A stretch of DNA of 46,118 nt from a virus (IMGVR_UViG_3300028048_000013); one strand, 5' to 3'. Positions 1 to 46,118 are shown, counted from the first letter of the stretch. The notes: a model not told the origin generated them from the sequence alone. Translations and numbers: made by a program.

Positions 1-127
1 CCCGGTTGCGGTTTGCCAATTACTTTACGGCGTTCTGTTGCGGCGTGGAATTTTGGTCGTTCCTTGAAAACGCGGCCGTTATTTCGGACCATCCCATATT
101 CCGTTGGTTACGCCGATTTATGAAATT
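1..127. repeat. Terminal direct repeat copy 1, identical to 45992..46118 (circular-assembly overlap or terminal redundancy)
   Basis: Base-by-base comparison of both window ends: 1..127 equals 45992..46118 exactly. Confidence 0.97.
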
Positions 128-188
128 CAAGGTTGAGGACCAAATCGGAATGACGTTTGAGGAAGCACAAAAGGACGTGGCAAAATGA
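1..188 (+). CDS. 3' end of the same holin gene (wrap-around); total about 157 aa
   Basis: In frame with 45706.. across the 127-bp overlap. Ends ...FMKFKVEDQIGMTFEEAQKDVAK, TGA at 186..188, overlapping the next ATG (ATGA). Confidence 0.6.
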   Translation, partial: RLRFANYFTAFCCGVEFWSFLENAAVISDHPIFRWLRRFMKFKVEDQIGMTFEEAQKDVAK

Positions 189-685
189 AGAAACAAAACA
201 TTGATGCAATAGTTATCCATTGCACGGCATCCCGGGCCGGTCAAGATTTACGCGCCGCCGACATTGACAAAATGCACCAAGAACGCGGGTTTGCGATGAT
301 TGGTTACAATTATGTCGTGGACCTTGACGGAACGGTTGAGGTTGGCCGCCCGTTAAGCCGTGACGGGGCGCATTGCAACACGGCCGGATTGTCCGGTAAA
401 TCGTACAACAAACATTCAATCGGAATCGTGTACGTGGGCGGCCTTGACGAAAACGGGAACCCGGCCGATACCCGGACCCCGGAACAAAAGTTGTCGTTAG
501 CCAATCTTGTTTACAAGTTGATTGACGAATACCCGATTGTTGAGGTTATCGGGCATCGGGACGCAAGCCCGGACAAAAACGGAAACGGGAAAATCGAACG
601 GAACGAATGGATAAAACAATGTCCGTGTTTTTCTGTACGCGACGAATTTCCGATGGCGGTTTGTGTAGCAGAGAAAAAACAATAA
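185..685 (+). CDS. Endolysin, N-acetylmuramoyl-L-alanine amidase (Amidase_2/PGRP, T7-lysozyme-like)
   Basis: IVIHCTAS, GYNYVV, SIGIVYVGG, GHRD and a downstream CPC match zinc-amidase motifs; adjacent to the holin. Confidence 0.85.
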   Translation: MKKQNIDAIVIHCTASRAGQDLRAADIDKMHQERGFAMIGYNYVVDLDGTVEVGRPLSRDGAHCNTAGLSGKSYNKHSIGIVYVGGLDENGNPADTRTPEQKLSLANLVYKLIDEYPIVEVIGHRDASPDKNGNGKIERNEWIKQCPCFSVRDEFPMAVCVAEKKQ

Positions 686-694
686 CTTTGCCGT

Positions 695-3059: not shown

Positions 3060-3542
3060 ATGGAAAAATGGAAAGATGCGCCCGGATTCCCCGGGTATCA
3101 AGTAAGCGACACGGGCCGCGTGAAACGTTCGATAAACGGAAAGATGTTGCGCCCGGTTCGTTATTCCAATGGTTATTACGTTGTCAATTTGTCCGGCCGT
3201 CGTATTGGCGTACATCGCTTGGTTGGATTGGCATTTATTCCGAATCCGGACGGGTTGCCGCAAATCAACCACAAAAACGAAATCAAGACGGATAACCGGG
3301 TTGAAAATTTGGAATGGTGCGATTCCAAATACAACAACAATTATGGATTAAGAAATCAAAAAGTAAGTGTTTCGCTTTCGAAGCCGGTTAAACAGTTAAC
3401 CCGGGACGGCATATTGATTCGTGTATTTTACGGCATCCACGAAGCCGGGCGGGAAACCAATATTAATTATCGAAATATTTACCTTGTTTTAGCCGGTCAA
3501 AGGAAAACGGCGGGCGGTTATAAATGGGAATATGCGTTATGA
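3060..3542 (+). CDS. HNH homing endonuclease (NUMOD4 N-terminus, HNH_3-type core)
   Basis: MEKWKDAPGFPGYQVSDTGRVKR...VHRLVGLAFIPNPDGLPQINHKNEIKTDNRVENLEW. Confidence 0.85.
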   Translation: MEKWKDAPGFPGYQVSDTGRVKRSINGKMLRPVRYSNGYYVVNLSGRRIGVHRLVGLAFIPNPDGLPQINHKNEIKTDNRVENLEWCDSKYNNNYGLRNQKVSVSLSKPVKQLTRDGILIRVFYGIHEAGRETNINYRNIYLVLAGQRKTAGGYKWEYAL

Positions 3543-5846: not shown

Positions 5847-6041
5847 GCCCGTATAGGCCAATTTCGGGCGATTTGGCGGCGTTTCCCGGCAAAATGGACC
5901 AACGGACCGTCCGGCGGCCGAAAGGCCCGTAAAACGAAAATCCGGGAAAAATAAGTGTTGGCCGGTCCGGCCCGGTCCCGGTCGGCCAAAAACGGTTTCT
6001 TAATGGCCGAAAAAGAATTTTTGAAAAATTATCAACTTTTT

Positions 6042-7509: not shown

Positions 7510-8844
7510 ATGAAAGACACAAAGACAATTGACCCGGCGTTGGCCGCATTGGCCGAACCGGAACAGGAACAGGCAAAGGAAATCGCGCCCGGAATGACCG
7601 TTGAGGAAATCCGCGCCGTATATTTCAACGCCGACGCATTGAAAGAACCCGCGTACCGTGTTTTCCAACTCAATTCCGACGGACATCGGTATTATTACCG
7701 GTTCAACGAAGCCGGGGAACCCGAATTTTTCCCGTCCGTCACGACGTTGTTAAAACAGGTTATGCCGACGCCGCCCGCCCTGTTGGATTGGATGATTGCG
7801 AACGGCAAGGATGGCGCGACGGAAAAACGCGACCTTGCGGCGGCATACGGAACGTTTATGCACATCCAATTCGAAACGTTGGTAATCAATCGGCGTTACG
7901 ACTTTGATAACGTCCCGGCGGTCCTGTTGGGATATATGGAACGGGAAAATTTGCCCGAAAAGGTATTTTCCGAATGGTTGCCGAAAATCCGCAAGGATGT
8001 GTTGGCGTTCGCCCAATTCGTCCGGGATTACAACGTAAAGCCGTTGGCAATCGAAATCGGGTTGGTCCATCCAAAATACAATTACGCCGGTTGCATTGAT
8101 TTGCCGTGCATAATGACCGACCCGAAAAGCGGGAAACAGTTTACCGCAATCGTTGATTTCAAAAGCGGCCGGAAAGGGTTTTACGAAGAACACGAATTGC
8201 AATTGCATTTGTACCGGGAAATGTGGAACGTAAATTACCCGGAAACCCCGGTTGCCCGCGTGTTCAACTTTTCGCCAAAGGATTGGCGGACGAAACCCAC
8301 GTACAATTTGAAAGACCAAACCGATTCCGTGAACGCCCGGAAATTGCCGTACCTGTTGGCCCTTGCATCCATTGAGGACGAAAAGCGGGATAACACGTTG
8401 ACGATTGTACGCGGCGTTTTGGACCTTGACAACGGAAAGATTGCCGACAACATCTTGACGTTATCGTTGGCCGACCTTATCAAGACGAAAGCGACCGAAA
8501 AGGACGCCCCGGAACAGGCGGCGAAAACCCCGGAAACGACGGATGAACCGGAACCGCCCAAGAAAGGCCGTAAAAGGGCCGTAAAAGCGACGAAAGAACC
8601 CGAACCGATAAATTCCCCGTCCGAACCGGGAAAGCCCGTTAAAACGGAAAATAAGGAAAAACAACTTATCCGGGCGGGCGGTTCCCCGGATGAAAAATTA
8701 CCGTGGGAAAAGGATATTGCCGACGGAACGGGCATTGAGGTTGAAAAAACCGACGATGGCGTGAAAGTGACGGCCCGGTATTTCGAACCGGCCCCGGAAC
8801 AGGCGGCAAAGGATAATTTGTTAAACGACGAAATCGAATTGTAA
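7510..8844 (+). CDS. PD-(D/E)XK family exonuclease with low-complexity Lys/Glu/Pro-rich C-terminal extension
   Basis: GCIDLPC...AIVDFKSG...ELQLHLY fits a D...(D/E)xK...QxxxY nuclease core. Confidence 0.5.
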   Translation: MKDTKTIDPALAALAEPEQEQAKEIAPGMTVEEIRAVYFNADALKEPAYRVFQLNSDGHRYYYRFNEAGEPEFFPSVTTLLKQVMPTPPALLDWMIANGKDGATEKRDLAAAYGTFMHIQFETLVINRRYDFDNVPAVLLGYMERENLPEKVFSEWLPKIRKDVLAFAQFVRDYNVKPLAIEIGLVHPKYNYAGCIDLPCIMTDPKSGKQFTAIVDFKSGRKGFYEEHELQLHLYREMWNVNYPETPVARVFNFSPKDWRTKPTYNLKDQTDSVNARKLPYLLALASIEDEKRDNTLTIVRGVLDLDNGKIADNILTLSLADLIKTKATEKDAPEQAAKTPETTDEPEPPKKGRKRAVKATKEPEPINSPSEPGKPVKTENKEKQLIRAGGSPDEKLPWEKDIADGTGIEVEKTDDGVKVTARYFEPAPEQAAKDNLLNDEIEL

Positions 8845-9972: not shown

Positions 9973-10035
9973 GAAATTTAATGCCCTGTAAAGTACCCCA
10001 ATCGTGGCCGCGATTGGTTGGAAATACGGGGCATT
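9973..10035 (+). promoter_or_regulatory. Structured leader element copy B (63 nt)
   Basis: Outer helix AATGCCCTGTA/TACGGGGCATT; inner helix CCAATCG/CGATTGG, a different sequence from copy A with the same geometry. Confidence 0.6.
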
Positions 10036-10044
10036 GCTCCTTTT

Positions 10045-10875
10045 ATGGATTTACAACGTAAAATTGACTTTGCAATAAAGTTGTTGCGTTCGATTCCGCA
10101 AGATGGACCGATTGAATTGTCGTATAGTGGCGGTAAAGATTCGGACGTAATCTTGGAATTGGCCAAAATGTCCGGTATTCCATTCGAAGCGATTTACAAG
10201 AATACAACGATTGACCCGCCGGGAACGATTGCGCATTGTAAGGAAAAAGGCGTTACGATTTTGAAACCGCGTGTTTCATCTCAAAAGATATTGGAAACAA
10301 AGGGTATGCCGTCAAGATGGCGTCGGTTTTGTTGTTCCGAATTGAAAGAATACAAAGTATATGACCGGGCAATACAGGGAATCCGCCGATGTGAATCAAT
10401 CAAAAGGGCAAAAATGTATAAAGAACCGGAAGAATGTAGAGTTTATCCAAATCGGGAAAAAGTACGTGTTTATTTTCCAATTCTTGAATGGACCGATAAA
10501 GATATTGAACAATTCATTGAGGACCGAAAAATAAAGTGTGCGCCGGTCTATTATGACGAAAACGGACAATTCCACGTTGAACGCCGTTTGGGTTGTTTGG
10601 GGTGTCCTTTGAAATCGGATGTTGGTTTAGCGGACTATACGAAATATCCAAAGTTGTTGAAAGCACATATAAAAGCATATCAAAAATTTTTAGATAACAA
10701 TAAAGGTAAAAAATTCGCTTCATTTCTTAACGGTTCCGCATACAACGGTTTCTTTTATCGTTTATTTTGTCGGTCAACCGGACAATATTTAATGTACATT
10801 GGCGGCGGCTTATTCCCGGAACAAAAGATTGATACAAAGGAATTTTTGGAACAATATTTTGGAATTGAATTATGA
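10045..10875 (+). CDS. PAPS reductase-like PP-loop ATP pyrophosphatase family protein
   Basis: LSYSGGKDSDVILELA PP-loop motif; C-terminal CLGCP; first ATG of the track ORF (the track start is TTG). Confidence 0.8.
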   Translation: MDLQRKIDFAIKLLRSIPQDGPIELSYSGGKDSDVILELAKMSGIPFEAIYKNTTIDPPGTIAHCKEKGVTILKPRVSSQKILETKGMPSRWRRFCCSELKEYKVYDRAIQGIRRCESIKRAKMYKEPEECRVYPNREKVRVYFPILEWTDKDIEQFIEDRKIKCAPVYYDENGQFHVERRLGCLGCPLKSDVGLADYTKYPKLLKAHIKAYQKFLDNNKGKKFASFLNGSAYNGFFYRLFCRSTGQYLMYIGGGLFPEQKIDTKEFLEQYFGIEL

Positions 10876-15077: not shown

Positions 15078-15148
15078 TGCGCCGTGGTGTAACGGCAACA
15101 CCCCGGATTTTGGTTCCGGTAATCCCCGTTCGAATCGGGGCGGCGCAA
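15078..15148 (+). tRNA. tRNA-Gln, anticodon UUG
   Basis: Cloverleaf folded by hand: acceptor TGCGCCG/CGGCGCA (U1-A72, as in bacterial tRNA-Gln), D arm GTGT/ACAC, anticodon arm CCGGA-TTTTGGT-TCCGG, T arm CCCCG-TTCGAAT-CGGGG. Confidence 0.85.
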
Positions 15149-15222
15149 CAAAAAGGGCCGCAAGCCCTGTTCTGTTAAAATTCCCGGGCAAGTAAGGCCG
15201 CGACGGCACGAACGCCCAACAA

Positions 15223-15303
15223 ACCCCCGTGGCGTAATGGTAGCCGCGATGGACTCAAAATCCATTCCCGCAAGGGGTGCCGGTTCGATTCCGGCCGGGG
15301 GTA
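15223..15303 (+). tRNA. tRNA-Leu, anticodon CAA (type II, long variable arm)
   Basis: Acceptor ACCCCCG/CGGGGGT, anticodon arm ATGGA-CTCAAAA-TCCAT, variable arm TCCCGCAAGGGGT, T arm GCCGG-TTCGATT-CCGGC. Confidence 0.85.
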
Positions 15304-15313
15304 CGAAAACGGA

Positions 15314-22865: not shown

Positions 22866-23173
22866 TGAAAAATTATTGGCAAACCAAATTAACGGCCTTT
22901 GATGCTGAATTGTGTAAAATGGTCGAATCGTTGACCGGGAAACCGTGCGAACTAAAAAACGGCGGAAGCCATTATTTTTTCGAAGCGGATTACGAAAAGC
23001 ACAACGACCCGCAATATATTTTGGCCATTTGGGACGCAATAGAGGGCCGGACGGGAAAACGCCTTATTTCCATTAAGGACGACGCCGACCGCCACGCCCT
23101 GTTTGTCCGTGTCAAGTTTTACAACGACGGTTGCCCGGATGCGGCATTTATCCCTAAAATCGAACAGGAATGA
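22862..23173 (+). CDS. Hypothetical protein (103 aa)
   Basis: ATGA overlap, track ORF. Confidence 0.65.
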   Translation: MMKNYWQTKLTAFDAELCKMVESLTGKPCELKNGGSHYFFEADYEKHNDPQYILAIWDAIEGRTGKRLISIKDDADRHALFVRVKFYNDGCPDAAFIPKIEQE

Positions 23174-23442
23174 ATAACGAACAATTACCGTTGGCAATGT
23201 CGGAATCCTTTTGGGCCAATTCCCAATTTTCCATTGCCCGATATACCGGCCGAATCCGTGTTGGAAAATACGATTACGTCATTTGTAACAAAGACGGCAA
23301 AGACATTTTCGAATGTTCCATTGAAGCGGAAAAGGCGGGCCGGGATGGATTCTTGCATTTTTGTAAAGCCAACCCGGATTGTTGGACGTTGAAACAAGCA
23401 AAGGAACGTTTGAAGCAATGGCAACAGAAACCGAACGATTAA
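23170..23442 (+). CDS. Hypothetical protein (90 aa)
   Basis: ATGA overlap, track ORF. Confidence 0.65.
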   Translation: MNNEQLPLAMSESFWANSQFSIARYTGRIRVGKYDYVICNKDGKDIFECSIEAEKAGRDGFLHFCKANPDCWTLKQAKERLKQWQQKPND

Positions 23443-23603
23443 CCGATTTGAAATGCCGCGATTGTTTGCATTTCGTGTTATCGGGTTGGTGGGACCCGCA
23501 ACGCGTGTGCGAAATAGGCGGATTCCCCGTTGACAAAGACGGCCCCGCTTGTATTTCAGTATTACCAAAAAACACAAAACACAATGGCAAGACCCGCGAT
23601 TGA
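23418..23603 (+). CDS. Hypothetical Cys-containing protein (61 aa)
   Basis: First ATG in track ORF 23379..23603; CRDC...C...C. Confidence 0.45.
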   Translation: MATETERLTDLKCRDCLHFVLSGWWDPQRVCEIGGFPVDKDGPACISVLPKNTKHNGKTRD

Positions 23604-23832
23604 AATTGTTTCCGAAGCGAAACGAAAGATTGACAAAGAACGACAACGTGGCGATTTTCGACCCGCACCGTTTTTCGATGCGCAAGCGGCCGCCGGGATG
23701 TGCGACCCGACGAATTACGGCGGTAACAACAAATCCGAATGGATAAAGAAATTGGCAAAGGCCGCCGCGCACATCCTTTGCGAAATCGAAACAATACAAG
23801 CCATTAAAGGCGATGGCATTTACCAACGTTGA
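23584..23832 (+). CDS. Hypothetical protein (82 aa)
   Basis: First ATG in track ORF 23530..23832. Confidence 0.55.
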   Translation: MARPAIEIVSEAKRKIDKERQRGDFRPAPFFDAQAAAGMCDPTNYGGNNKSEWIKKLAKAAAHILCEIETIQAIKGDGIYQR

Positions 23833-23889
23833 CAAATTCCCGGACGGAATACAACCCCGCCCGGGATTCGTCGTATTTTGAATTATTGT

Positions 23890-23897
23890 TAACTTTG
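23890..23897 (+). promoter_or_regulatory. -7 box TAACTTTG upstream of the small terminase gene
   Basis: Matches TAnnTTTG, 16 nt before the ATG at 23914. Confidence 0.45.
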
Positions 23898-23913
23898 CAA
23901 AAACCCCGGAATT

Positions 23914-24812: not shown

Positions 24813-26357
24813 ATGGACGTTGATACGATGCAAATAACCCGGGCGTTATCAGAACACCCGGAATTGTTCTTACAAGAGGGCGCACGGCGAAACCTGTTGT
24901 GGTTTGCGGAATATATGGACCCGAACTTTCAACCGACGCCGTTTCATAAAGCGTATTACCGCGTTTTGGATATGTTCGCAAAACGTTGGATTAAGAAATT
25001 GATTATACAGGCCCCGCCGCAACACGGCAAATCGCAAGGGTCAAGCCGGTTTCTTCCGGCCGATATGTTGGGATTATACCCGGATATTCGTATTTGCATT
25101 TGTTCGTATGCGGCAACGATTGCAAAGGATTTCAACCGGGACGTTCAACGGTTGATTGATTCGGAAAATTACCGGGCCGTTTTCCCGGAAACAGTATTGA
25201 ACGGGTCCAACGTCGTAACGGTTGCCAACAATTACTTGCGCAATTCGGACGTGTTCGAAATCGTGAATCATACCGGTTCGTTGCGCGTCGTTGGCCGTGG
25301 CGGTTCGTTGACGTCAAAGACGGTTGACGTTATGATTTACGACGATTTGTACAAGGATTCGTCGGAAGCCAATAGCCCGATAATCCGGGCGGCCGCGTGG
25401 GATTGGTTCACAAAGGTTGCACAAACCCGTTTGCACAACGATTCGCAACAACTAATCGTGTTTACGCGATGGCATCCCGACGACATTATTGGCAAAATCA
25501 TTGATTCGGAAAAGGTCGTATTTGTTGAATCGTGGTCAGACCTTGAAAACATCCCGTCCGGGGCGTGGGTATTGGTCAATTTTGAAGCAATCAAAACCGG
25601 GCAACCAACGGAAATTGACCAACGCGAAGCCGGGCAACCGTTGTGGGCGCAACGCCATTCGTTGGAACGCTTGTTGGCGCAAAAACAATTGGACCCGTTG
25701 GGTTTTCAATGCCTGTACCAAGGTAACCCGGGCGACGCAACCGCATTTTTGTACCAACCGTTCAAAACGTGGGTCGAAAAATCGGATTGGGGCCAATATA
25801 TCCGTTCCGGATGTTACGTTGATGTTGCCGACCAAGGCGACGACTTTTTGTTTGCCGCGTCTTATGACATTTACAAATCGGAAAACCAAATTTGGAATGA
25901 GAACAAACGCCGGTACGAACCGTTGTTGTTCGCTCTTATAACCGACGTTGAATTTACCGACGAATCAACGGATGTTACGGCCGTAACCGTTCCCCGGATG
26001 ATAAACAACAATGGCGTTCAAAAAGCGTGGATAGAATCGAACAACGGCGGGTCCCAATTCGAAAAGGCCGTGAAAAAAAAAGTTCGGGCGTTGACCGTTC
26101 CGTTTTACCAAGGCGAAAACAAAGAATCCCGGATTGTCACGAACGCGCCGTTTGTAAATCAACATATCATTATGCCGTTCGGATGGGAAAGCCGGTACAA
26201 GAAATTCCACGACCATATTGTGGGATTCTTGCGCAAGTTTGACGCGAACGAACACGACGACGACGCCGACGGATTGACCGGAATATACGAAAAGGAAATT
26301 GCCGACGGGAATACGAAACCATACGGCGCGGCCAATCGTGGCGTCCGTGTCCATTAA
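24813..26357 (+). CDS. Terminase large subunit
   Basis: Walker A-like QAPPQHGKSQ, Walker B VDVMIYDDLY, C-terminal nuclease-like acidic residues; size and position fit. Confidence 0.8.
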   Translation: MDVDTMQITRALSEHPELFLQEGARRNLLWFAEYMDPNFQPTPFHKAYYRVLDMFAKRWIKKLIIQAPPQHGKSQGSSRFLPADMLGLYPDIRICICSYAATIAKDFNRDVQRLIDSENYRAVFPETVLNGSNVVTVANNYLRNSDVFEIVNHTGSLRVVGRGGSLTSKTVDVMIYDDLYKDSSEANSPIIRAAAWDWFTKVAQTRLHNDSQQLIVFTRWHPDDIIGKIIDSEKVVFVESWSDLENIPSGAWVLVNFEAIKTGQPTEIDQREAGQPLWAQRHSLERLLAQKQLDPLGFQCLYQGNPGDATAFLYQPFKTWVEKSDWGQYIRSGCYVDVADQGDDFLFAASYDIYKSENQIWNENKRRYEPLLFALITDVEFTDESTDVTAVTVPRMINNNGVQKAWIESNNGGSQFEKAVKKKVRALTVPFYQGENKESRIVTNAPFVNQHIIMPFGWESRYKKFHDHIVGFLRKFDANEHDDDADGLTGIYEKEIADGNTKPYGAANRGVRVH

Positions 26358-30892: not shown

Positions 30893-32011
30893 ATGTCACT
30901 TGTAGCAACCCGTTTGCAAAATTGGCGTGTCGAAAACCCGCAATTTGACCGGAATATGGCCCGCCCGTTGGAATATGGCGCGTTGGATTTCTTCATTGAG
31001 CAAACCAACGCCGCAAATTCCATCATCAACCCCAACTTGCGCGACCGTGCCTTTGAATCCATCGGCAACACCGTGCAAATTCCCGTTATCAATTACGATG
31101 GCGACGTGACCGTTTCCAACGTCCGTTCGTGCGTCATTGCCGACGACGAAAACACGTCCGCGTTGTACACCGTGAATTGGGTAACGCTTTCCGTCGGTTT
31201 CACGATGGTTCCCCAACTGTACAGGAACAACGAAATTTCCTACGAACACGACTTTGCCCGCAAGATGGAAAAGATTTGCCGCGCCCTTGCAACCGCAATG
31301 GATGTACAGGCAATCGCCGCCCTTGAAGCGAACAAAACCCAAGTGTTCAAGGATTCGTTGTATTACACCGTCACGTCCAATTCCGTGCAAATTCCTTGGA
31401 ACGCCCGTATGGAATTTTTGGCGGATATGAACGCGATTATGCGTGCAAACGCATATCCCGAAATGTTGCACGTCATTGGCGGGGCCGGGTTCGATTCTCT
31501 TGTGCGCAAGATGGCCGAACACGACATTTACAACGACGTCAACAAGCGTTTGGAATACGACAACAAAGTGTTCCACTATACCAACAACATTGTGAACGCT
31601 TCCGGCATCTTTGCAACCGGTTACATCGTGGCCGATGGCAACGTTGGCGTTCTTACCCGCGTGGACCGCGAAGCGTTGAGCCGCACCCGCGCCAATTTCC
31701 ACGAATGGGACGTTGTGCGTCTGCCGTTCATTGACTTGCCCGTAGGTTCCCACTATTACACCGCCGTTGGCGACCAATCCGGCATTGCCGGGGATGCGTC
31801 CGCCGATATGGTGTGCAACGTCAAGGAATATTTCGGATTTTCCGTTGACGTGGCCTTTTTGGTCGCGTACAATTCCGACCCGACAACCGTTGCCAACCCG
31901 ATTATCAAGGTTGAGTTGGCCGCCCCGGGTTCCGCAAATCCGTTCGCAACGCCTGTTGAGGTCGTGAACAGTACGACCAATCCGGTTAACACTCTTGAGG
32001 TCACGCCTTAA
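30893..32011 (+). CDS. Major capsid protein candidate
   Basis: 372 aa, follows the scaffold-like gene, and is followed by the strongest terminator in the window. Confidence 0.6.
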   Translation: MSLVATRLQNWRVENPQFDRNMARPLEYGALDFFIEQTNAANSIINPNLRDRAFESIGNTVQIPVINYDGDVTVSNVRSCVIADDENTSALYTVNWVTLSVGFTMVPQLYRNNEISYEHDFARKMEKICRALATAMDVQAIAALEANKTQVFKDSLYYTVTSNSVQIPWNARMEFLADMNAIMRANAYPEMLHVIGGAGFDSLVRKMAEHDIYNDVNKRLEYDNKVFHYTNNIVNASGIFATGYIVADGNVGVLTRVDREALSRTRANFHEWDVVRLPFIDLPVGSHYYTAVGDQSGIAGDASADMVCNVKEYFGFSVDVAFLVAYNSDPTTVANPIIKVELAAPGSANPFATPVEVVNSTTNPVNTLEVTP

Positions 32012-38700: not shown

Positions 38701-39410
38701 ATGCGGAAATTGAAGCCCGAAACGCCGGTTATGCCAATTCGGTTGAAACGGCGCAAAAGGAATTGGAATTGGCGCGAAAAAACCAAGAACAAGCATTGCG
38801 GGAACAACAGAAAGCGCAACGGGCGCAATTGGCCGCCGATTCCATCGAACAGGCGTCAAGCCTTACCACGGCATCGGCAAATATTTGGAAGGCGTTGTCC
38901 GGGATTAACGTAATTGGGCCGGGCCTTGCTGTTGCGGCAATTGCGACTATGTGGGCGTCGTTTGCCGCCGCGAAAATAAGGGCCGTTCAAGTGTCTAAAC
39001 AAAACACCGAGCAATACGGCGAAGGAACGGTTGAACTGTTACAGGGCGGAAGCCACGCAAGCGGCCACGACATTGATTTGGGGACGAAGAAAGACGGAAC
39101 CCGGCGACGTGCAGAGGGTGGCGAATTTTTCGCCGTTATTAACAAGCGAAATTCCCGCCGATTCCGCGACGTTATCCCGGACGTTATCAATTCGTTTAAC
39201 GATGGCACATTTGCGGACCGTTACCAACGCGCAAACGCCGCGATGGCCGGTTATGCGGTGCAATTGATTGGCGGCGGGAAAACGGACGTTTCCGGCCTTG
39301 AAAAAGACGTGGCCGCAATCCGTCAACAGGGCGACGAAACCCGGTATGTGGATGGTCAAGGAAACACGATTATTCGGTACAAGAATTTAACCCGTAAAAT
39401 CAAGTCGTAA
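35781..39410 (+). CDS. Tape measure protein (1209 aa)
   Basis: Length, extensive coiled coil, and hydrophobic segments GTIGILMSFVRYLTGAA and GPGLAVAAIATMWASFAAA. Confidence 0.85.
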   Translation: MDNPNPIYYRDLITPDNSITNLIAQLDELIQKYESAKSKIQGAAAEAAKSMGNLSGATEEQRQQISMLTAESYKLAAAYKKSNDAESETYRRRQQVIAAVKEQQRIDKLVVELNNSKVGSYNRLSAQYRLNKIRLNEMSAEERKGTEAGRQLETETRLIYEEMSRLQQATGKYTLEVGHYQNALKALPGPINQVVTGFSNMRSQLHTIGSSNLPLAAKAMQGFSTVMFGTIGILMSFVRYLTGAAQTMREFEQANANLSTILGTSRDGMKALTDSALSLGRTTEYTARQVTELQTELAKLGFGQGSIIAMQKPVLQFATAVGANLADAAAVAGSTLRAFNLRSAETEETLATLAVATNKSALSFDRIQTSIGTVFPVANAFGLTVKDTTALLGALANAGFDASSAATATRNIILNLADANRKLAKAMGGPAKTFDEIIDGLISLRKAGTDLNEALELTDKRSVAAFSALLSGAESARELRQSLEDVNGELDRISEERLNTVEGSTKLLQSAWEGLTLAFQNSNGAIKDTIDWLTRLVQATQRALFPESTFISESADKYTKQFQDYYAKNGAEAATAFIDNFEKSYQKMADKYTDDAERDPIINRWFGIGKNQRGSKVAQSTLQAIEQARGVVLSQIENDTREREQQALRAAELAEQQANQKKQESDSAAKKAVEAAKKQRIADRRAVIESIDLEIAITEAGTDKMLQLRQDRIEAQRQLELEQNRQKTESERQDEAAINAKYDKQRLDAVKAFNSEIDKLKVQRLQAEQQAIQLEISITEDGTERMLELRLANIEKQREIEIAQNRQKDEKVRQAETAINAKYDALRLRESADFNNKLAQRDLAAAQDLAQAEFDLMDRNERQKTLFRLQQEKARLEAILKLNETATKKMTADEIAAVKATIAGIEKESKRLGYNNLYELLGIGLDSEQQRALNTAIDSVKDSIGSLVDSWNAAAEAAVNAANAQVEAAQRTLDAEIEARNAGYANSVETAQKELELARKNQEQALREQQKAQRAQLAADSIEQASSLTTASANIWKALSGINVIGPGLAVAAIATMWASFAAAKIRAVQVSKQNTEQYGEGTVELLQGGSHASGHDIDLGTKKDGTRRRAEGGEFFAVINKRNSRRFRDVIPDVINSFNDGTFADRYQRANAAMAGYAVQLIGGGKTDVSGLEKDVAAIRQQGDETRYVDGQGNTIIRYKNLTRKIKS
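37857..38342 (+). repeat. Tandem duplication inside the tape measure gene (2 x 243 nt = 2 x 81 aa)
   Basis: TTGGAAATT..ATAACGGAAG at 37857 and 38100; GCCATTAACGCCAAATA at 37989 and 38232; both pairs are offset by 243 nt. Confidence 0.8.
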
Positions 39411-42211
39411 TGAATCCTATTTACAAATTTGATATTAACCGCACGACGGTTAACTTGTTTAATCCAAAAGTTGTTTTTGTCGAAAAGCAACTTGACACGG
39501 GAACGGGCGAATTGACAAATGCGTTGGCGTATGATTCATCGGATTTCATAGCCGTTCAACCTAATAGGAATTATCATTTTCTTTTGAATGATAACACGGT
39601 TGTTCCGTCAAGTAAAGTTCTTGTTTGTGCATATAAGACAAACAAAGAATTTATAAGTTACATTTCTTATTCCACGTTGCAATTTTCGACCCCGGCCAAT
39701 TGTGGATTTGTGCGGTTTTCTTTTTATAACGAAAATTATGGCGGATATTTACCGGCACAAATAGGGCTATTCCGGTCCAACATTTCGTCTTTTTCCAACT
39801 ACATAACGACAATTGCATACCCCGTTTATAAAGATGATTTAACGAAGGATTTTGAAAAGGAGTCGAATCAAGAATTTTTCCGGGCCAAGTTGTCCGGGAA
39901 ACTTTCTTTTGTCGGCCCGGATTACGATTGGATTGTCGCACAGGCATTCGATTTTCAGTTCGTTTTAATTCTGTCTATATCTTATGACGCGGGGGAAACA
40001 TGGACCGAATATTGGCGCGGAAATTTTTGGAAAACCGATTGCGACTTTGACGACGATGCAAAAACGGTTACAGTTACCCCGACCGTCATGGACAAATACA
40101 ATGCGGTTTTGGCCGGTTTGGAAAAAGAATATAACCTAATTGAGTTGGCCCCGGAAATCGTGCCCGTAAAGGCAGACAAACGGCCGATGGTGCAAGTTTA
40201 TGTTCCGGGCCAATCCGTTATTGGTTGTTTTCTTTCCGGAATGTGGTGGGAACAAGAATGCGAGCCAATTTTTTCGGAAACGGATTTGGTCAAGGCAGGT
40301 GATGGCGAGTTGAACTTCGCAAAAAATAAGACAACGCGCATTATTGAATTGACAAGCGGCGCATCTTCTGATGTCCCGACATTTTCCAAGTTTGACAACC
40401 CAAGCGATAATGTTTATGGGACATATTCATTAAACAACGGATATAGACTTGAAATATTCGATATTACAGAGTCGCCCGACAATCCGATGGTTCGCATTCT
40501 TTTGACGAAAGAGGGCGTCAGTTATTCTTGGCTTCGTGATATGTCGGCGGTAAATTTCGGGCTGCCAATTGATATTGAATTGAATCCTATGGATGGTGCG
40601 CCATATACGATGTCGTTATATATGCACGATTTCAATGTTTATGCGCGGTATCTTTTGGATGTGGATACTATTATAGGCGTTCCAACGTTCGCCATATCAA
40701 AAGATAATGATATTGTTCCGAACAATCGCAATTATAATCGCGTTGTTCGATGCGATTCGGAAGATATTATCTATTTCTCAACGGAGTTCAGTAGCACCCC
40801 GACGCAGTGGGGCATTCGTCAACCGGGCGAGTATTATATGCCGCCGGCATCTATTTATGGCCAAGAGTTTTTCCCGGTTTCTCGGAGCGGGTGGGGAAAT
40901 ATGTCTGTATGGTTCACGCAATCGGTCGTGTATTGGCTTTGGGAAGAAGCGGGGCGGGCACCATTCACGATTCGTCACGCGTACCCGCTATATTCGGTCA
41001 TATCTGTATTACTGGCGCAAATCGCGCCCGGAATAACACACGATGGAACCACGGATTATTCGCAATTTTTGTATGGCGAAAATCTGATTGGGATAACGCA
41101 AACATTGTTGATTACTCCAAAATCAAACATCGTTTCAGCCGGTTATGACCAACCGGCACAGAAAGCACCAATTACGTTAAAGAACGTTTTGGATATGTTG
41201 CGCGATTGTTTCCGTTGTTATTGGTTCATTGACGACCAAAACCGATTCCGTGTTGAGCATATCCAATATTTCCGTAATGGCGGTTCGTATTCCGGTTCGC
41301 CTGTTGTGGGTATTGACTTGACGACACAAAAAGTTTCACGCAACGGGAAAGAATGGGCGTTTGCACGGAATCAATACAAGTTTGATAAACCCGAAATGGC
41401 GGCACGGTATCAATTTGGTTGGATGGACGATGTAACCCAATTGTTTGAGGGATACCCGATTGATATTGTTTCAAAGTACGTCAATCCGGACAATATCGAA
41501 CAAATTGGTGTGTCAAACTTTACGTCCGATATTGATTATATTTTATTGAATCCGAGCGAAATATCAAAGGATGGTTTCGTTTTATTGGCGGCGGTTGAAG
41601 CGAACGAATTAACGGAAGAATATACGAATACATTTGGTTCAACGGGCGTTATTACGTATAAAAGAGAGGTTCCAAATACTTGGTTGGGAAAACTTGCGAA
41701 AATAAATTATTATCTTTCAAATGGGAGTTGTAAAATTAGAATTTTTCGGCAAACGGGGCAATTTATCGAATCGGATACAATGTCGGGTTCGGGAAATATT
41801 ACAATACAAGTTCCAAGCGATGCGACGATGTTTTTTTTCATTAATGGAACAGAGGGCGCAACGATAACATTATATTCGTTATATGCTGAAAATTTGGGAT
41901 TGCCATATATTAATTTCAATTTTAATGAAACGGACCATATATTACAAAATGCGTATGTCGCATTTATATATTTACAACGATATTACGCATTTGATATGCC
42001 CGCGCCGTTGTATTCAATCAATGGCGAACAAATGGTGGCGCAAGGAATCAAGAAATTAAAGACACAAACATTAAGATTCCCGGTTTTGAACGACCCGGAT
42101 TTGGTGCAATTGGTCAAAACGAATTTGGGAAACGGAACAATCGAAAAATTGTCCGTAAATTTGTCATCAAGAAACGCAAACGTAACGTTGAAATATGATA
42201 CCGAACAATAA
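39410..42211 (+). CDS. Large distal tail / baseplate protein (933 aa)
   Basis: TAATG overlap with the tape measure stop; contains modules similar to those in the fibre. Confidence 0.8.
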   Translation: MNPIYKFDINRTTVNLFNPKVVFVEKQLDTGTGELTNALAYDSSDFIAVQPNRNYHFLLNDNTVVPSSKVLVCAYKTNKEFISYISYSTLQFSTPANCGFVRFSFYNENYGGYLPAQIGLFRSNISSFSNYITTIAYPVYKDDLTKDFEKESNQEFFRAKLSGKLSFVGPDYDWIVAQAFDFQFVLILSISYDAGETWTEYWRGNFWKTDCDFDDDAKTVTVTPTVMDKYNAVLAGLEKEYNLIELAPEIVPVKADKRPMVQVYVPGQSVIGCFLSGMWWEQECEPIFSETDLVKAGDGELNFAKNKTTRIIELTSGASSDVPTFSKFDNPSDNVYGTYSLNNGYRLEIFDITESPDNPMVRILLTKEGVSYSWLRDMSAVNFGLPIDIELNPMDGAPYTMSLYMHDFNVYARYLLDVDTIIGVPTFAISKDNDIVPNNRNYNRVVRCDSEDIIYFSTEFSSTPTQWGIRQPGEYYMPPASIYGQEFFPVSRSGWGNMSVWFTQSVVYWLWEEAGRAPFTIRHAYPLYSVISVLLAQIAPGITHDGTTDYSQFLYGENLIGITQTLLITPKSNIVSAGYDQPAQKAPITLKNVLDMLRDCFRCYWFIDDQNRFRVEHIQYFRNGGSYSGSPVVGIDLTTQKVSRNGKEWAFARNQYKFDKPEMAARYQFGWMDDVTQLFEGYPIDIVSKYVNPDNIEQIGVSNFTSDIDYILLNPSEISKDGFVLLAAVEANELTEEYTNTFGSTGVITYKREVPNTWLGKLAKINYYLSNGSCKIRIFRQTGQFIESDTMSGSGNITIQVPSDATMFFFINGTEGATITLYSLYAENLGLPYINFNFNETDHILQNAYVAFIYLQRYYAFDMPAPLYSINGEQMVAQGIKKLKTQTLRFPVLNDPDLVQLVKTNLGNGTIEKLSVNLSSRNANVTLKYDTEQ

Positions 42212-43064
42212 CTTGTCAATATTGCCGTGGTATACATCCATTGAGCAACAGAACGCCCGCAAATGGTGGTTATATGGCCGTGTGTATCCGCTATTTACAC
42301 CGGCCGGGTTCCTGTTGCCGTTTCAAATACTCTTGGATTATCGGGCCACGCCGTCAATGTCCGCGTGTGTACTTTATGATGCGAATACAAATGCGGTGGT
42401 TGATTCGGCGGTTGCGGCAAAGTTGAACAATACCGGATTCACGTTCAAACAGTTTTCCGCGTTGGGTTACACGGTTGCGGTTTATCCGGGACTGTTACCG
42501 GCGTTTACTTCATTGGTCAATGGCCGTTATTATTTGCGTATTACCATCAACGGCGTTTATTATTATTCGGAAATCTTTACGGTTGTAAACGACATTGAAC
42601 CGTACTTGAAAATTACTTGGTGGGACCTTTCCGATTTCACGATGGACGCGGGAACAATTGTGTACACGAATCCGGCTTTTAAGAACGTGTTGTATCTACA
42701 AAGCGATTTGGCAAAACCCGAATATCCATTTGAGGAAGAGGGCGAAACCCGGGATGGTTACTTTTTCCCGACCAAACAAATTACCGAAAAACGATACCGG
42801 TTCAATTTTCTTGCGTCCGAATATCTGTTGGACGTTATGCGGTTTATTCGAATGGCGGATTTCGCGGAAATCGAATACCACGGCCAACGTTATAGTTTAG
42901 ACACATTTTTAATAACCCCGGAATGGGAAGATAACGGCGACGTTGCGGCCGTTGAAGCGGTTTTTGATACCGCGACGGTTGCAAAGAAAATCGGTTTGGG
43001 TTACATCAAGGCGCAACGCGGCGATTTCAACGATGATTTCAATAATGATTTTAACAACCAATAA
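42195..43064 (+). CDS. Tail protein (289 aa)
   Basis: Track ORF between the two large tail genes. Confidence 0.75.
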   Translation: MIPNNNLSILPWYTSIEQQNARKWWLYGRVYPLFTPAGFLLPFQILLDYRATPSMSACVLYDANTNAVVDSAVAAKLNNTGFTFKQFSALGYTVAVYPGLLPAFTSLVNGRYYLRITINGVYYYSEIFTVVNDIEPYLKITWWDLSDFTMDAGTIVYTNPAFKNVLYLQSDLAKPEYPFEEEGETRDGYFFPTKQITEKRYRFNFLASEYLLDVMRFIRMADFAEIEYHGQRYSLDTFLITPEWEDNGDVAAVEAVFDTATVAKKIGLGYIKAQRGDFNDDFNNDFNNQ

Positions 43065-43076
43065 TACATTTTGATT

Positions 43077-45713
43077 ATGGCAAATTACGCAACACTTAAA
43101 TCGGCGATACAAAATGTTGTAAAGACAAATGGAAACAACGAAATAACCGGCGCGTTGCTTCAACAATCATTGTTGGCAATGATAGATTCTTTGGGGGCCG
43201 GTTATCAATTTGCAGGTGTTGCCATTCCATCAACTAATCCGGGAACGCCTGACCAAAATGTTTTTTATATGGCCGGTTCGGGAACATTCCCAAATTTCAA
43301 TAATACGATTGTTCCGGATGGACAATTGGCGGTATTCAAATATAACGGTTCGTGGACAACCGATTTAATCCCCGTTGGAAAAAATTATGATGCGGAAATT
43401 TTATACAAATCAAGCCGTGTTCCGGGATTAATTTTTATGAATATATTCAATGCGCTTGACAAAGAAAATCAAAGTGGATATTATGTTTCGTCTGTGACCG
43501 GTTCTTTGACACGAAATGCGAATTATATTGCATCTCACTATATACCCGTATTTGGCGGTCGTTCATATTATATTTCATATAAAAATCAAATTGCGTGGTA
43601 TGATAGCGATAAAAATTTTATATCGGGGTCCGCGGCATCCGAAACGTCAAGAATACAAATCGCGCCACAAAATGCGGCATTTTTGCGGTGTTCAATATCG
43701 TTGTCGGCATTTGATACGTTTATGGTTGCAGAATCCACAACGGAACAAACATACGTAAAGTATGGAATTATACGCAACGATGTTCTTGAACAAGAAATTC
43801 AAGATTTGATAATAAACGCATTAATAATAAAACCCGGGAAAAATAAATTTGACGTTTCGGCCGCGACAAATGGGCGCTTGCGTGAAGATGGAACAACGGT
43901 TGGCGCATCATTGTATAAAGTTTCCGGATTTATCCCTGTATCGCCAAACGTGACATATTGTATTTCGGACGAACAAAATATTTTTCAATCCGGGCAATTG
44001 ATTTGTTTTTATGACAACGAACGCAATTTTTTGTCTTATCAAAGTGTGACCTCGGGGAAAAAACAAGTTATAACAACGCCAAATAATTGTTATTATTTTC
44101 GGTTTGTGTTGCTGATTGCAAACATAGTACGGCCGCAAGTGGAAATCGGGACGGAAAGGACAAATTACGTCCCTTATAGCGAAATTGGGGGCTATATACC
44201 GGAAATCAAAGAAAACACGGTTTATAATCAATCAATTGTTGATAATGCCATAACGACGGAAAAGGTTTTAGACGGTTCAATTAGCGCACAAAAAACGGAT
44301 TTTATTATTAGTAAAAATCTGCTGAATAAAAACGATTCGGATGTTGCGATTGGAAAATATATTATTTCGACAACCGGCAATTTGTCGGCGAACGCCGGAT
44401 ATAATACAAGTGGATTTATAAAAGTATTTCCCGGGGCAACTTATTATTTTGGTTCAATTGAAAACCAAGTTGCGGCGCGTTTTTATGCGTTTTTCGATGA
44501 AAACAAAACATACGTTTCCGGTGGGAGTGATATTTCATCAATAGTTGTTCCGGAAAATGTTGTGTTTATTCGTTTTTCTTTTTCGACATCCATTTGGAAC
44601 GGAAATGGTGCGCAATTATCGAAAGATGCAATTATACCATATACGGAATATCAATTAGAATTTTCGAATGGAATTGGGCTTGGTTCTTCAATTAAAGCCC
44701 CGATTTCAAGTTTGGGGAATGCCGCAAGTATTACAAATTCGCAAACATTGGCAAGCGGGGAAACATTAACATTTGATGTGTTCCCACGCTATCAATTGCG
44801 TGGTCTTGTTATGTCTTTCGCGTGTAAAATATTAATATTTAGTGAATTGATAATTGGGAAAGGTTATCAACAACGATTGGGCAAATATATAAGAATTACA
44901 TCGACGAATGTTGAATTAATTTCTTGCGATTTGTCCGGAAATGAAACAGTAAAAGACGTGGCGGCGCACGGATTATCAATTAATACTTTTTTGCGGGTAT
45001 CTTTACAATATGTCAATGGTGGGCAATTGCGTTACATTATATCATCCATCGGCGGATATTTTACAAAAACGGTAAATTGGGGATATATTGGCGAATATCA
45101 ACCGTTTGTTATGAGCGTCGGCACGTCCGCGACTGAATTAACATTGGCAATCGGTTCTTTGGACCTTAAAAAAAGCGTTTGGGCATTTGGGGATAGTTAT
45201 ATGAGCATATCGCCGGAAAGATGGCCCGGGGTTTTACAATCTGTTGGGGTTGAATCTTTTATGATTAATGCGTTAAGTGGCATTAATAGCGTTAATATGT
45301 TAACGGATGCAATTAAAGCATTTAAGAATTATTCGCCAAAATTTGCTATTTGGGGGCTTGGTATGAATGATTCAAGCGATACGGATAATTCCACCCCGGC
45401 CCCAAATTGGTTGTCTGCAATTAATTCGTTTTTGGTGTTATGTTCAGAAAATGGGACAATCCCTATTCTTGCGACAATTCCTTGTGTGCCAAGTAAAAAC
45501 CACGCCGCAAAAAACAGTTGGGTTCGTTCAAGTGGATACCGATATATTGATTTCGCGGATGCCGTTGGCGCAAATGTATATACAAGTGGCGTAAATAATT
45601 GGTACGAAAATATGCTTTCAAGCGACGAAATCCACCCGACGGCATTGGGGGCGCAAGCGTTAGCGTCGCGTGTTTTGGCGGATTTCCCGGAAATTTTACA
45701 ATACAATGATTAA
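43077..45713 (+). CDS. Tail fibre with three tandem beta-sandwich-like modules and C-terminal SGNH/GDSL esterase
   Basis: First ATG (the track start at 43071 is TTG). SGNH blocks FGDSY, ALSG, GMNDS, DEIHP in the last roughly 180 aa. Confidence 0.8.
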   Translation: MANYATLKSAIQNVVKTNGNNEITGALLQQSLLAMIDSLGAGYQFAGVAIPSTNPGTPDQNVFYMAGSGTFPNFNNTIVPDGQLAVFKYNGSWTTDLIPVGKNYDAEILYKSSRVPGLIFMNIFNALDKENQSGYYVSSVTGSLTRNANYIASHYIPVFGGRSYYISYKNQIAWYDSDKNFISGSAASETSRIQIAPQNAAFLRCSISLSAFDTFMVAESTTEQTYVKYGIIRNDVLEQEIQDLIINALIIKPGKNKFDVSAATNGRLREDGTTVGASLYKVSGFIPVSPNVTYCISDEQNIFQSGQLICFYDNERNFLSYQSVTSGKKQVITTPNNCYYFRFVLLIANIVRPQVEIGTERTNYVPYSEIGGYIPEIKENTVYNQSIVDNAITTEKVLDGSISAQKTDFIISKNLLNKNDSDVAIGKYIISTTGNLSANAGYNTSGFIKVFPGATYYFGSIENQVAARFYAFFDENKTYVSGGSDISSIVVPENVVFIRFSFSTSIWNGNGAQLSKDAIIPYTEYQLEFSNGIGLGSSIKAPISSLGNAASITNSQTLASGETLTFDVFPRYQLRGLVMSFACKILIFSELIIGKGYQQRLGKYIRITSTNVELISCDLSGNETVKDVAAHGLSINTFLRVSLQYVNGGQLRYIISSIGGYFTKTVNWGYIGEYQPFVMSVGTSATELTLAIGSLDLKKSVWAFGDSYMSISPERWPGVLQSVGVESFMINALSGINSVNMLTDAIKAFKNYSPKFAIWGLGMNDSSDTDNSTPAPNWLSAINSFLVLCSENGTIPILATIPCVPSKNHAAKNSWVRSSGYRYIDFADAVGANVYTSGVNNWYENMLSSDEIHPTALGAQALASRVLADFPEILQYND

Positions 45714-46118
45714 AACGATAACATTATACCCGGCAAAGATTTTGGCCGGAATCCTTGCCGGGTTCCTTTCCGTATTCGTCGAAAACCTGTTGCCGTTGTT
45801 CATAACGGTAACGGTTTTCGAATTGGTTGATTTCATAACCGGCGTTATCAAATCGGCCGTCGTGGCCAAGCGTACCAAACAACGGTTTGCGTTCGAATCG
45901 GTAAAGGCGTGGCGGACCATATACAAATTCGTTTTTATATTGGTCGGTATCGTATTGGCCGAAATGTTGGACCAAACCGTTGCCGCCGAAACCCGGTTGC
46001 GGTTTGCCAATTACTTTACGGCGTTCTGTTGCGGCGTGGAATTTTGGTCGTTCCTTGAAAACGCGGCCGTTATTTCGGACCATCCCATATTCCGTTGGTT
46101 ACGCCGATTTATGAAATT
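45706..46118 (+). CDS. Holin (Phage_holin_4_1-like), 5' part; frame runs off the window end and continues at 128..188
   Basis: ATG at 45706 overlaps the fibre stop (ATGATTAA). Translation MIKTITLYPAKILAGILAGFLSVFVENLLPLFITVTVFELVDFITGVIKS... has three hydrophobic segments and the DxxTG motif. It sits directly upstream of the endolysin once the circle is closed. Confidence 0.6.
   Translation, partial: MIKTITLYPAKILAGILAGFLSVFVENLLPLFITVTVFELVDFITGVIKSAVVAKRTKQRFAFESVKAWRTIYKFVFILVGIVLAEMLDQTVAAETRLRFANYFTAFCCGVEFWSFLENAAVISDHPIFRWLRRFMK
45992..46118. repeat. Terminal direct repeat copy 2, identical to 1..127
   Basis: Same comparison; unique genome length is 46118-127 = 45991 bp. Confidence 0.97.

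Follow-up and report, generated by a model that had tools for sequence, protein, structure and literature searches.

The 46,118-nucleotide (nt) sequence IMGVR_UViG_3300028048_000013, which was analysed over its whole length and is referred to here as the window, is an apparently complete phage genome with nearly all of its genes on the plus strand, and it raises the question why it contains so few AG and CT dinucleotides. Our analysis shows that the deficit is not a mutational by-product inherited from a host. We consider it probable that it represents an adaptive evasion of DNA-targeting host immunity by purging of AG/CT-cored sites, with phage-borne tRNAs compensating for the altered codon usage and glycosylation of the DNA serving as the alternative of related phages.

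The window consists of 13,245 A, 11,730 G, 10,827 T and 10,316 C. From this base composition, 5,791 AG plus CT dinucleotides are expected on the plus strand and 1,777 were observed; in 200 mononucleotide shuffles, the sum of the two had a mean of 5,792, a standard deviation of 63 and a minimum of 5,651, corresponding to a z-score of -52.7. The symmetrised dinucleotide odds ratio (rho*) over the whole genome was 0.309 for AG/CT, compared to 0.860 for GA/TC, 0.614 for TA, 1.594 for AA/TT and 1.671 for CG. A genome-wide depletion of AG and CT had been claimed in an earlier reading of the sequence alone (the sequence-only reading), and this claim is borne out both by the genome-wide value, which lies far outside the usual band of 0.78-1.23, and by the range of 0.22-0.44 over all 46 consecutive segments of one kilobase (kb). 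The hand counts on which it was based were exact for 30901-31200 (AG 2, CT 4, GA 15, TC 17) and 44221-44520 (AG 7, CT 3), and for 5851-6000 they were correct for AG (3), CT (1) and TC (8), the number of GA being 6 and not 4.

In the 67 genes called with a self-trained codon model, the ratios for AG/CT were 0.28/0.36 across codon positions 1-2, 0.40/0.18 across positions 2-3 and 0.38/0.18 across positions 3-1. The 4.0 kb of intergenic DNA gave an AG/CT value of 0.32, with symmetric values on the plus strand alone (AG 0.34, CT 0.29). Since the deficit is found at all codon junctions as well as in intergenic DNA, it is a property of the DNA and not of the codons; the earlier statement that the bias extends to non-coding DNA and that codon preference alone is insufficient to explain it was thus correct.

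The avoided unit is BAG/CTV (B being C, G or T, and V its complement) rather than AG as such: relative to the mononucleotide expectation, CAG is found at 0.21, GAG at 0.10 and TAG at 0.09, compared to 0.82 for AAG. Among the tetranucleotides, only AAAG (1.43), CAAG (1.14) and ACAG (0.63) are spared, and GAAG (0.40), TAAG (0.29) and every other NBAG are depleted, the lowest being CCAG and CTAG (0.00 each). The context still counts at the level of five nucleotides, as AACAG is found at 1.78 versus 0.05 and 0.07 for GACAG and CACAG, respectively. Overall, the purge has eliminated approximately 70% of AG/CT and 80-90% of BAG/CTV and left about 553 BAG/CTV sites in the window, or about one per 83 base pairs (bp). 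The observed-to-expected ratio of BAG is 0.03-0.25 in each gene of at least 300 nt, and there are no islands of recent horizontal acquisition, as all genes are depleted. The tail-fibre region (39410-45713) has a lower G+C content (0.39-0.41), a smaller excess of AA/TT and the highest residual BAG ratios (0.17-0.25), a composition that is compatible with a more recent exchange of host-range modules.

By megablast and tblastn, the window matches Alistipes phage AS73P1, Parabacteroides phage PD491P1 and Bacteroides phage BKO1-3, and it is thus a siphophage of the candidate family 'Paboviridae' (PMC10773633, PMC12694917). This placement rests on homology and synteny; with AS73P1 and PD491P1, these extend over the terminase, portal, capsid and replication module, and the large terminase (TerL) is 66-67% identical. 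The TerL gene served as family marker:

24813..26357, plus strand: large terminase gene, with homologues of 63-98% identity at 68 IMG/VR loci.

Over these 68 terminase-anchored loci, rho*(AG) ranges from 0.27 to 0.99, with intermediates at 0.46-0.57, and the complete genomes of the cultured relatives AS73P1, PD491P1 and BKO1-3 share the bias (0.40-0.45). In a neighbour-joining tree of TerL, the non-depleted lineages are scattered among the depleted ones. The trait is therefore graded and evolutionarily labile within this 'Paboviridae'-like family. In the intermediate lineages, nearly all NBAG tetranucleotides are partly depleted, instead of a few being fully lost. At the same time, some contexts are specific for individual clades: CAGG is found at 0.03-0.05 in one lineage versus 1.14 in another, and GAGG at 0.8-0.9 in a human-gut clade versus 0.18 in the window. 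The differences between pools of depleted and non-depleted genomes are almost confined to AG/CT-containing k-mers, with TCGAG, for example, occurring once in the depleted pool versus 493 times in a similar-sized pool of non-depleted relatives. A C5-methyltransferase encoded by BKO1-3 was considered as the reason for the tolerance of GAGG/CCTC in the human-gut clade and rejected, as the gene is present in only one of 106 loci covering its site.

The closest relatives of the window are IMG/VR viral contigs and contigs mis-binned into metagenome-assembled genomes (MAGs) from the gut of sheep and other animals. Among the latter, contigs of up to about 48 kb (L154-L164), whose amidases are 81-95% identical to the amidase encoded at 185-685 of the window, are found in MAGs labelled as Alphaproteobacteria, Acutalibacteraceae, Eubacteriales, Kiritimatiellia and others, several of which owe their names to sheep gut samples; mis-binning of phage contigs by composition is almost certainly the explanation.

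The host clade does not share the bias. In 45 Bacteroidales stretches upstream of 16S genes, mostly from Prevotella, Segatella, Bacteroides, Phocaeicola, Parabacteroides and Paludibacteraceae, rho*(AG) was 0.80-1.09 and rho*(CG) mostly 0.6-1.3. Thus, the AG/CT deficit is not the result of amelioration to the host, an explanation to which the sequence-only reading had pointed as a possible objection. Two unrelated Bacteroides phages are without AG bias as well, with rho* values of 0.92 for B40-8 and 1.32 for crAss001. The latter phage (L004, MH675552, bases 1-50000) shows a second, different single-dinucleotide purge: CG occurs 44 times versus 1,397 expected (rho* 0.03), with GC at a normal level (1,299), and approximately half of its CGs are located within a tRNA array at 1.6-5.8 kb. 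We found no published description of this CpG purge in the literature.

The consequences of the AG/CT deficit for the proteins were assessed at 23,210 positions of orthologous genes at which the encoded amino acid is identical in the window and in non-depleted relatives. At these conserved residues, the codons of the relatives are host-like. From the relatives to the window, the share of CTN among the Leu codons falls from 70% to 22%, that of CAG from 73% to 15%, GAG from 63% to 7%, AGR from 27% to 5%, AGY from 29% to 8%, GCT from 15% to 1%, CCT from 21% to 3% and ACT from 15% to 2%. The routes of replacement are CTN>TTG, NAG>NAA, AGR>CGN, NCT>NCC/NCG/NCA and the multi-step exchange AGC>TCC, so that the base changes C>T, G>A, A>C and T>C/G/A are all used. 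A sequencing or base-calling artefact caused by a modified base is ruled out, as conserved residues use multi-step synonymous alternatives (AGC, TCC) and the proteins are intact. The codon preferences that had been noted from the sequence alone were for the most part right, if overstated: the shares are 84% CAA for Gln, 92% GAA for Glu, 91% CGN for Arg, 85% TCN for Ser, 66% TTG for Leu (with TTA at 13% and CTT at 14%) and only 63% AAA for Lys.

The choice of the third base also depends on the following codon. In four-fold families, a third-base A is used in 2% of the codons preceding a codon that starts with G versus 14-35% otherwise, and a third-base C in 4% before T versus 27-49% otherwise; in two-fold NNY codons, C makes up 12% before T versus 57-70% otherwise. 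Even the protein sequence is altered where AG cannot be avoided synonymously: 136 Glu-[V/A/D/E/G] dipeptides were observed versus 321 expected, a ratio of 0.42 compared to 0.83 in the non-depleted orthologues. Lys-[V/A/D/E/G] dipeptides, which yield the tolerated AAAG, are unchanged (0.99 versus 1.01 in the non-depleted orthologues). Stop codons are affected likewise, TAG accounting for five of 62, in line with the rarity noted before. Scarcity of CTA had also been proposed to give rise to long antisense open reading frames (ORFs), and the stop density of 1.7% per codon in the codon-aligned antisense frame, to which only 16 CTA codons contribute, is consistent with this. One such case in the ORF list is the following:

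30893..32011, plus strand: capsid-region gene, shadowed by an antisense ORF of 375 amino acids (aa) at 30896-32023.

The window encodes two tRNAs, both detected by ARAGORN, that match the preferred codons:

15078..15149, plus strand: tRNA-Gln(UUG), reading CAA, the AG-free Gln codon (84% of Gln).
15223..15304, plus strand: tRNA-Leu(CAA), reading TTG, the CT-free Leu codon (66% of Leu).

The gene for tRNA-Gln(UUG) itself contains neither AG nor CT in its 72 nt. Among 85 family loci covering the tRNA site, the Gln(UUG)+Leu(CAA) pair is present in 24, two of which carry an extra Lys(UUU) and one an extra Arg(ACG), and Gln(UUG) alone in one. All 25 tRNA-bearing loci have rho* values of 0.28-0.45; for the 60 loci without tRNAs, the range is 0.43-0.89. 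The compensating tRNAs hence track the strongest depletion. As in other phages whose tRNAs offset a codon difference to the host, the Gln(UUG) and Leu(CAA) tRNAs of the window and the Lys(UUU) and Arg(ACG) tRNAs of its relatives decode codons that are over-used compared to the host-like relatives; here, however, the codon shift stems from a dinucleotide constraint at the level of the DNA and not from GC content or late-gene expression. The AG/CT purge is apparent from the choice and pairing of codons, from the dipeptides of the proteins and from the tRNA content.

The window also shows palindrome avoidance of the classical kind. It has two GATC and three CATG sites and neither AGCT nor CTAG, with approximately 180 expected for each; 31 of the 64 six-bp palindromes are absent, and GAATTC, CCGCGG, GCCGGC, GGCGCC and others are near zero. 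CCGG (545 sites) and GGCC (379 sites) are strongly over-represented. Elsewhere in the family, other sets are lost in an all-or-none fashion: in the human-gut clade these are GGCC and CGCG, whereas L059 avoids TCGA and L062 avoids CCGG. The palindromes therefore conform to the classical pattern of Type II avoidance, i.e. near-complete and lineage-specific loss, whereas the AG/CT purge itself is non-palindromic and graded. The purging of palindromes in the same genome argues that motif avoidance is the general anti-restriction strategy of this family, with the AG/CT purge as a broader, graded layer on top. Motif avoidance is textbook knowledge for palindromes of 4-6 bp, e.g. in GATC-free or GGCC-free phages. 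The window resembles these phages in the counter-selection of sites that are read by host defences and differs from them in that it purges thousands of sites with a non-palindromic core of 2-3 nt, in a graded manner (5-10-fold), and in that this purge reshapes codon usage, codon pairs and dipeptides and is accompanied by the acquisition of tRNAs. The loss of GATC, CATG and half of the six-bp palindromes, the BAG/CTV unit and the compensating tRNAs had all been missed by the sequence-only reading.

A search for genes that are present in non-depleted loci and absent from all 133 depleted loci yielded a cassette located directly upstream of the small terminase gene. It consists of a ParB_N-domain protein followed by a glycosyltransferase of the TET-associated kind (TAGT, Pfam PF20691, E-values down to 8e-29), and some cassettes add an ArdC-like anti-restriction protein or a radical-SAM protein. 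Its positions elsewhere and the corresponding site of the window are as follows:

L065:5278-6974, L070:6825-8179, L031:6985-8614 and L061:3102-4818, also L287-L365: ParB_N plus TAGT module, upstream of the terminase genes (Pfam).
23170..23913, plus strand: empty cassette site of the window, between the gene at 22862-23173 and the small terminase gene (synteny).

At this site, the window has only two small ORFs (23170-23442 and 23530-23832) without Pfam match. In a survey of 77 loci spanning the site, ten were TAGT-positive, nine of them with rho* values of 0.76-0.97 and the tenth being a weak match (30%) at another position; 64 of the 67 TAGT-negative loci had rho* values of at most 0.59, the exceptions being L047 and L048 (both 0.84) and L062 (0.99), which has an ArdC-like gene. 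ArdC-like proteins, composed of an ArdcN and a zincin-like metallopeptidase domain, are encoded by two non-depleted relatives (L062:665-1576 and L065:4274-5161), and tblastn revealed no homologues in the other family loci that were searched.

By tblastn, no TAGT homologue was detected in the window or in the three complete cultured depleted genomes. Searches of the window with PHROGs, Pfam, PADLOC and tblastn, in which ORFs below about 60-100 aa were only partly scanned, gave no match for TAGT, methyltransferase, TET or hydroxymethylase, the only finds being a PAPS-reductase-domain protein and a MazG-like protein. A link to DNA modification, which the sequence-only reading had listed as a possible cause, thus runs in the opposite direction: no modification gene is recognisable in the window, and the relatives carrying the glycosyltransferase are without depletion. 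According to the contig names, depleted and TAGT-carrying genomes co-occur in the same metagenomes. In single-protein searches, which returned mostly unrelated phages, 79 unrelated IMG/VR contigs were found to carry the glycosyltransferase, and in 78 of them the ParB_N-TAGT pairing is kept, adjoining terminase genes. Neither a TET nor a hydroxymethylase was seen beside TAGT, the constant partner being the ParB_N protein.

In T6-like phages, modified cytosines are glycosylated by enzymes of the TAGT family (PMC13390438). Based on this homology, we infer that the ParB_N-TAGT cassette is a DNA-modification module, and that genomes modified in this way would be released from the pressure against AG/CT. 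The lack of depletion in the TAGT carriers argues that the pressure acts on DNA and is defence-like; together with the strand symmetry of the bias, relief by a DNA glycosyltransferase argues that it acts on duplex DNA. There is a parallel in the DNA hypermodification of T-even phages (glucosyl-hydroxymethylcytosine; TAGT, PF20691), in that relatives of the window carry TAGT beside the terminase genes and show no purge, which is consistent with modification as an alternative shield. The systems differ in that the window itself has no match for TAGT, methyltransferase or hydroxymethylase and that no TET or hydroxymethylase neighbour was seen for the TAGT genes of its relatives.

Taken together, these data favour evasion of a DNA-targeting defence, which of the three causes named by the sequence-only reading (evasion of a sequence-directed defence, a mutational signature and a link to DNA modification) is the best supported one, albeit only indirectly. 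According to this model, Bacteroidales hosts would deploy DNA-targeting defences that read short, asymmetric sites with a shared AG/CT core, and each BAG/CTV site would carry a small, time-averaged risk of lying in a site that is read by the next host. Substitutions destroying such sites would be weakly but persistently favoured. The sites would be removed by synonymous codon replacement and by the choice of bases at codon junctions and, where both fail, by avoidance of Glu-[V/A/D/E/G] dipeptides, and the translational cost of the forced TTG and CAA codons (in some relatives AAA and CGN) would be offset by the phage tRNAs. Relatives that modify their DNA by means of the ParB_N plus TAGT cassette would escape the pressure and keep a host-like AG/CT content.

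The turnover of the residual sites bears on the strength of the putative selection. In closely related depleted genomes with 2.6-9.8% divergence, residual AG/CT dinucleotides were 1.5-2.4 times as likely as other dinucleotides to be unshared, with a factor of about 2-3 for BAG. For the 3.2-fold deficit of AG and the 5-10-fold deficit of BAG, mutation-selection balance with weak selection (scaled S of approximately 1-2.3) predicts factors of 1.65 and 2-2.6, respectively, compared to 3.2 and 5-10 for a pure mutation bias. The data fit weak selection better than mutation bias, which is suggestive only, since residual sites under constraint make the test less sharp. Such weak selection on single sites is expected if BAG lies only occasionally in a site of the next host, or if a sensor responds to the density of sites.

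Candidate agents are the asymmetric adenine-methylase systems, i.e. MmeI-like Type IIG/IIL, Type III, Type I, BREX PglX and DISARM, many motifs of which end in ...AG. Another candidate is phosphorothioate defence. The phosphorothioate systems of gut Bacteroidales (BREX type 4, Dnd and Ssp) use partially modified motifs of 3-4 nt, among them NCTC (BREX type 4 of B. salyersiae), GAAG/GACG (Butyricimonas), CpsAG (faecal metagenomes) and GpsAGC/GpsCTC (PMC12914056; bioRxiv 10.1101/2024.06.03.597111). Several phosphorothioate motifs are depleted, namely GAGC (0.07), CTC (0.10), CAG (0.22), GAAG (0.36) and GATC (0.00). The likeness to these systems (BREX type 4 BrxPCZL, Dnd, Ssp) lies in short AG/CT-containing sites, as GAG/CTC, CAG/CTG and GAAG are depleted in the window, which also has a BrxP-like PAPS-reductase-domain gene; unlike the motifs in the cited reports, however, the depleted ones include TAG/CTA. 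A more distant analogy is the suppression of CpG and UpA in vertebrate RNA viruses (ZAP, OAS/RNase L), which is likewise a genome-wide synonymous dinucleotide bias with a small effect per site and is thought to lessen recognition by innate sensors. That case is eukaryotic and concerns single-stranded RNA, whereas the bias of the window is strand-symmetric on DNA, so that it serves as an analogy only.

Several points weigh against evasion of a DNA-targeting defence. With approximately 553 BAG/CTV sites remaining, the depletion cannot confer outright immunity against an enzyme with a 3-nt site, which obliges the model to assume either numerous longer motifs or a sensor that responds to density. 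The association with TAGT is a correlation among related genomes that was not corrected for kinship; furthermore, the non-depleted loci L047, L048, L062, L035 and L060 have no TAGT in the stretch examined, and TAGT-positive relatives still avoid several palindromes. An enrichment of ...AG among asymmetric defence motifs is presumed from REBASE and BREX examples. The fit to the phosphorothioate motifs is partial, as GACG (1.50), CCA (1.15), GAAC (1.78) and GGCC (2.29) are not depleted, and CCTC, the most modified site in B. salyersiae, is tolerated in the human-gut clade.

In its boldest form, which we put forward as a tentative and rather doubtful proposal, a widespread, undescribed DNA immunity of Bacteroidales, or a large family of related systems, would sense unmodified AG/CT-cored sites of 2-3 nt quantitatively. 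Over evolutionary time, its strength would suffice to force synonymous recoding of the whole genome, dipeptide avoidance and tRNA capture in one of the most prevalent families of gut phages. It would be neutralised by the packaging-linked ParB_N plus TAGT cassette, and the near-total loss of CpG from crAss001 would then count as another trace of short-motif immunity of this kind.

Less likely still is a single Bacteroidales sensor or nuclease which, as a DNA analogue of ZAP, would read the density of unmodified AG/CT-cored sites of 2-3 nt and not a pool of longer motifs; this would be a special case of the evasion model, and a more novel one. The graded, near-uniform depletion over almost all NBAG tetranucleotides in the intermediate lineages and the confinement of the difference between depleted and non-depleted pools to AG/CT k-mers would be expected in this case, crAss001 provides an even stronger single-dinucleotide purge, and in these hosts there are phosphorothioate systems that combine 3-nt cores with partial modification. 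The tolerated contexts, however, reach 4-5 nt, as illustrated by AACAG versus GACAG and CACAG, and differ between clades, which looks more like many specificities than one, and to our knowledge no such sensor has been described.

Context-specific mutation pressure appears improbable. In this scenario, a host or phage enzyme, such as a deaminase, a biased repair system or a short-patch activity, would preferentially mutate the C of CTV or the A/G of BAG, the genome would be at mutational equilibrium, and the glycosylated DNA of TAGT-positive relatives would be a poor substrate. It accounts for the over-representation of the products of the single steps CT>TT/AG>AA and AG>CG (AA/TT 1.59, CG 1.67), for the graded depletion in intermediate lineages, for the faster turnover of residual AG sites compared to other dinucleotides and for the strand symmetry, as expected for a process on duplex DNA. 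It does not account for the recoding data: the depletion of NCT codons (GCT 1%, CCT 3%, ACT 2%) matches that of CTN and NAG, although C>T is non-synonymous in NCT, the exchange of AGC for TCC in Ser codons requires three changes, and AGR and AGY are lost as fully via different classes of substitution. PHROGs and Pfam annotation of the window genes revealed no polymerase of the phage's own, and the ATPase, exonuclease, SSB and further genes for replication and recombination are common to the window and non-depleted relatives; the hosts, replicated by the same machinery, are unbiased. Sharp differences between clades in tetranucleotide preference and a turnover of BAG of about 2-3-fold instead of 5-10-fold also speak against it. 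The mutational signature that the sequence-only reading had considered is therefore disfavoured.

The purge could also reflect self-avoidance of a short-motif endonuclease that the phage itself uses on host DNA, with TAGT-positive relatives being protected by modification instead, but we regard this as very improbable. The window encodes a GIY-YIG protein (695-1336), two HNH proteins (3060-3542 and 20530-20955), a PD-(D/E)XK protein (7510-8844) and a DnaQ-like exonuclease (18630-19475). T4 protects itself by modification against its own cytosine-specific nucleases, and a dichotomy of modification or avoidance mirrors this T-even logic. Yet, the conserved nucleases are found in relatives with and without depletion, the remaining BAG/CTV sites would still suffice for the genome to be cut to pieces, and the clade-specific tetranucleotide differences have no obvious explanation; we know of no 3-nt-specific nuclease in this phage family.

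Finally, translational selection, by which codon usage would be tuned to phage tRNAs or to the host tRNA pool with the dinucleotide bias as a side effect, agrees with the match of tRNA-Gln(UUG) and tRNA-Leu(CAA) to the dominant codons but is effectively refuted by the intergenic and junction data, as intergenic DNA (0.32) and the boundaries between codons (A|G 0.38, C|T 0.18) show the bias to the same degree, the third base varies with the neighbouring codon, the tRNA genes themselves are affected, the human-gut clade is depleted (0.43-0.5) without tRNAs, and two tRNAs cannot explain the avoidance of NCT, AGN and junctions.

Two further genes of the window have domains that relate to DNA modification or nucleotide pools:

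10018..10875: plus strand, PAPS-reductase-domain protein (PF01507, 1e-13; phrog_424; PADLOC BrxP, 1.2e-11).
14299-14619: MazG-like nucleoside triphosphate pyrophosphohydrolase (phrog_2245), found in 14 family loci, one of which is non-depleted.

The former protein has its best match in the defence library in BrxP, which forms the phosphorothioates of BREX type 4, and it could have a phage-borne function in DNA modification or counter-defence. As a cause of the bias, this rare accessory gene was rejected, since homologues are present in only six family loci, two of which are non-depleted. A distant homologue adjoins the TAGT cassette of L073. MazG-like enzymes often accompany the manipulation of nucleotide pools in phages with modified DNA. 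The small ORF at 22650-22865 was also considered as a depletion-specific gene and discarded, being present only in a subset of the depleted loci and hence not explanatory. The GIY-YIG and the two HNH genes encode putative homing/HNH endonucleases; they are as AG/CT-poor as the rest of the genome and are therefore not recent arrivals, and the only tblastn match of the GIY-YIG protein among the examined loci was in crAss001. The large terminase ORFs of L047 (3586-6135), L050 (8822-11338) and L057 (2080-4659) comprise 838-859 aa compared to the usual length of about 514 aa, which is suggestive of an insertion in frame, for instance of an intein or a homing-endonuclease domain.

We found no published description of an AG/CT purge in this very prevalent family of gut phages, the family's own papers included. 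The purge of 70-90% of a di-/trinucleotide core over a whole double-stranded DNA phage genome goes well beyond palindrome avoidance, and the window is an unusually extreme and unusually structured case of motif avoidance. The AG/CT deficit provides a quantitative read-out of a selective pressure from sequence only. The presence of depleted and TAGT-carrying non-depleted genomes in the same metagenomes represents a natural experiment, and the agent is tractable with cultured isolates. Gene callers and host predictors based on k-mers or codon usage would be misled by such genomes, for example through long antisense ORFs and non-host composition, and engineered Bacteroides phages may need AG/CT-poor recoding in order to retain their host range.

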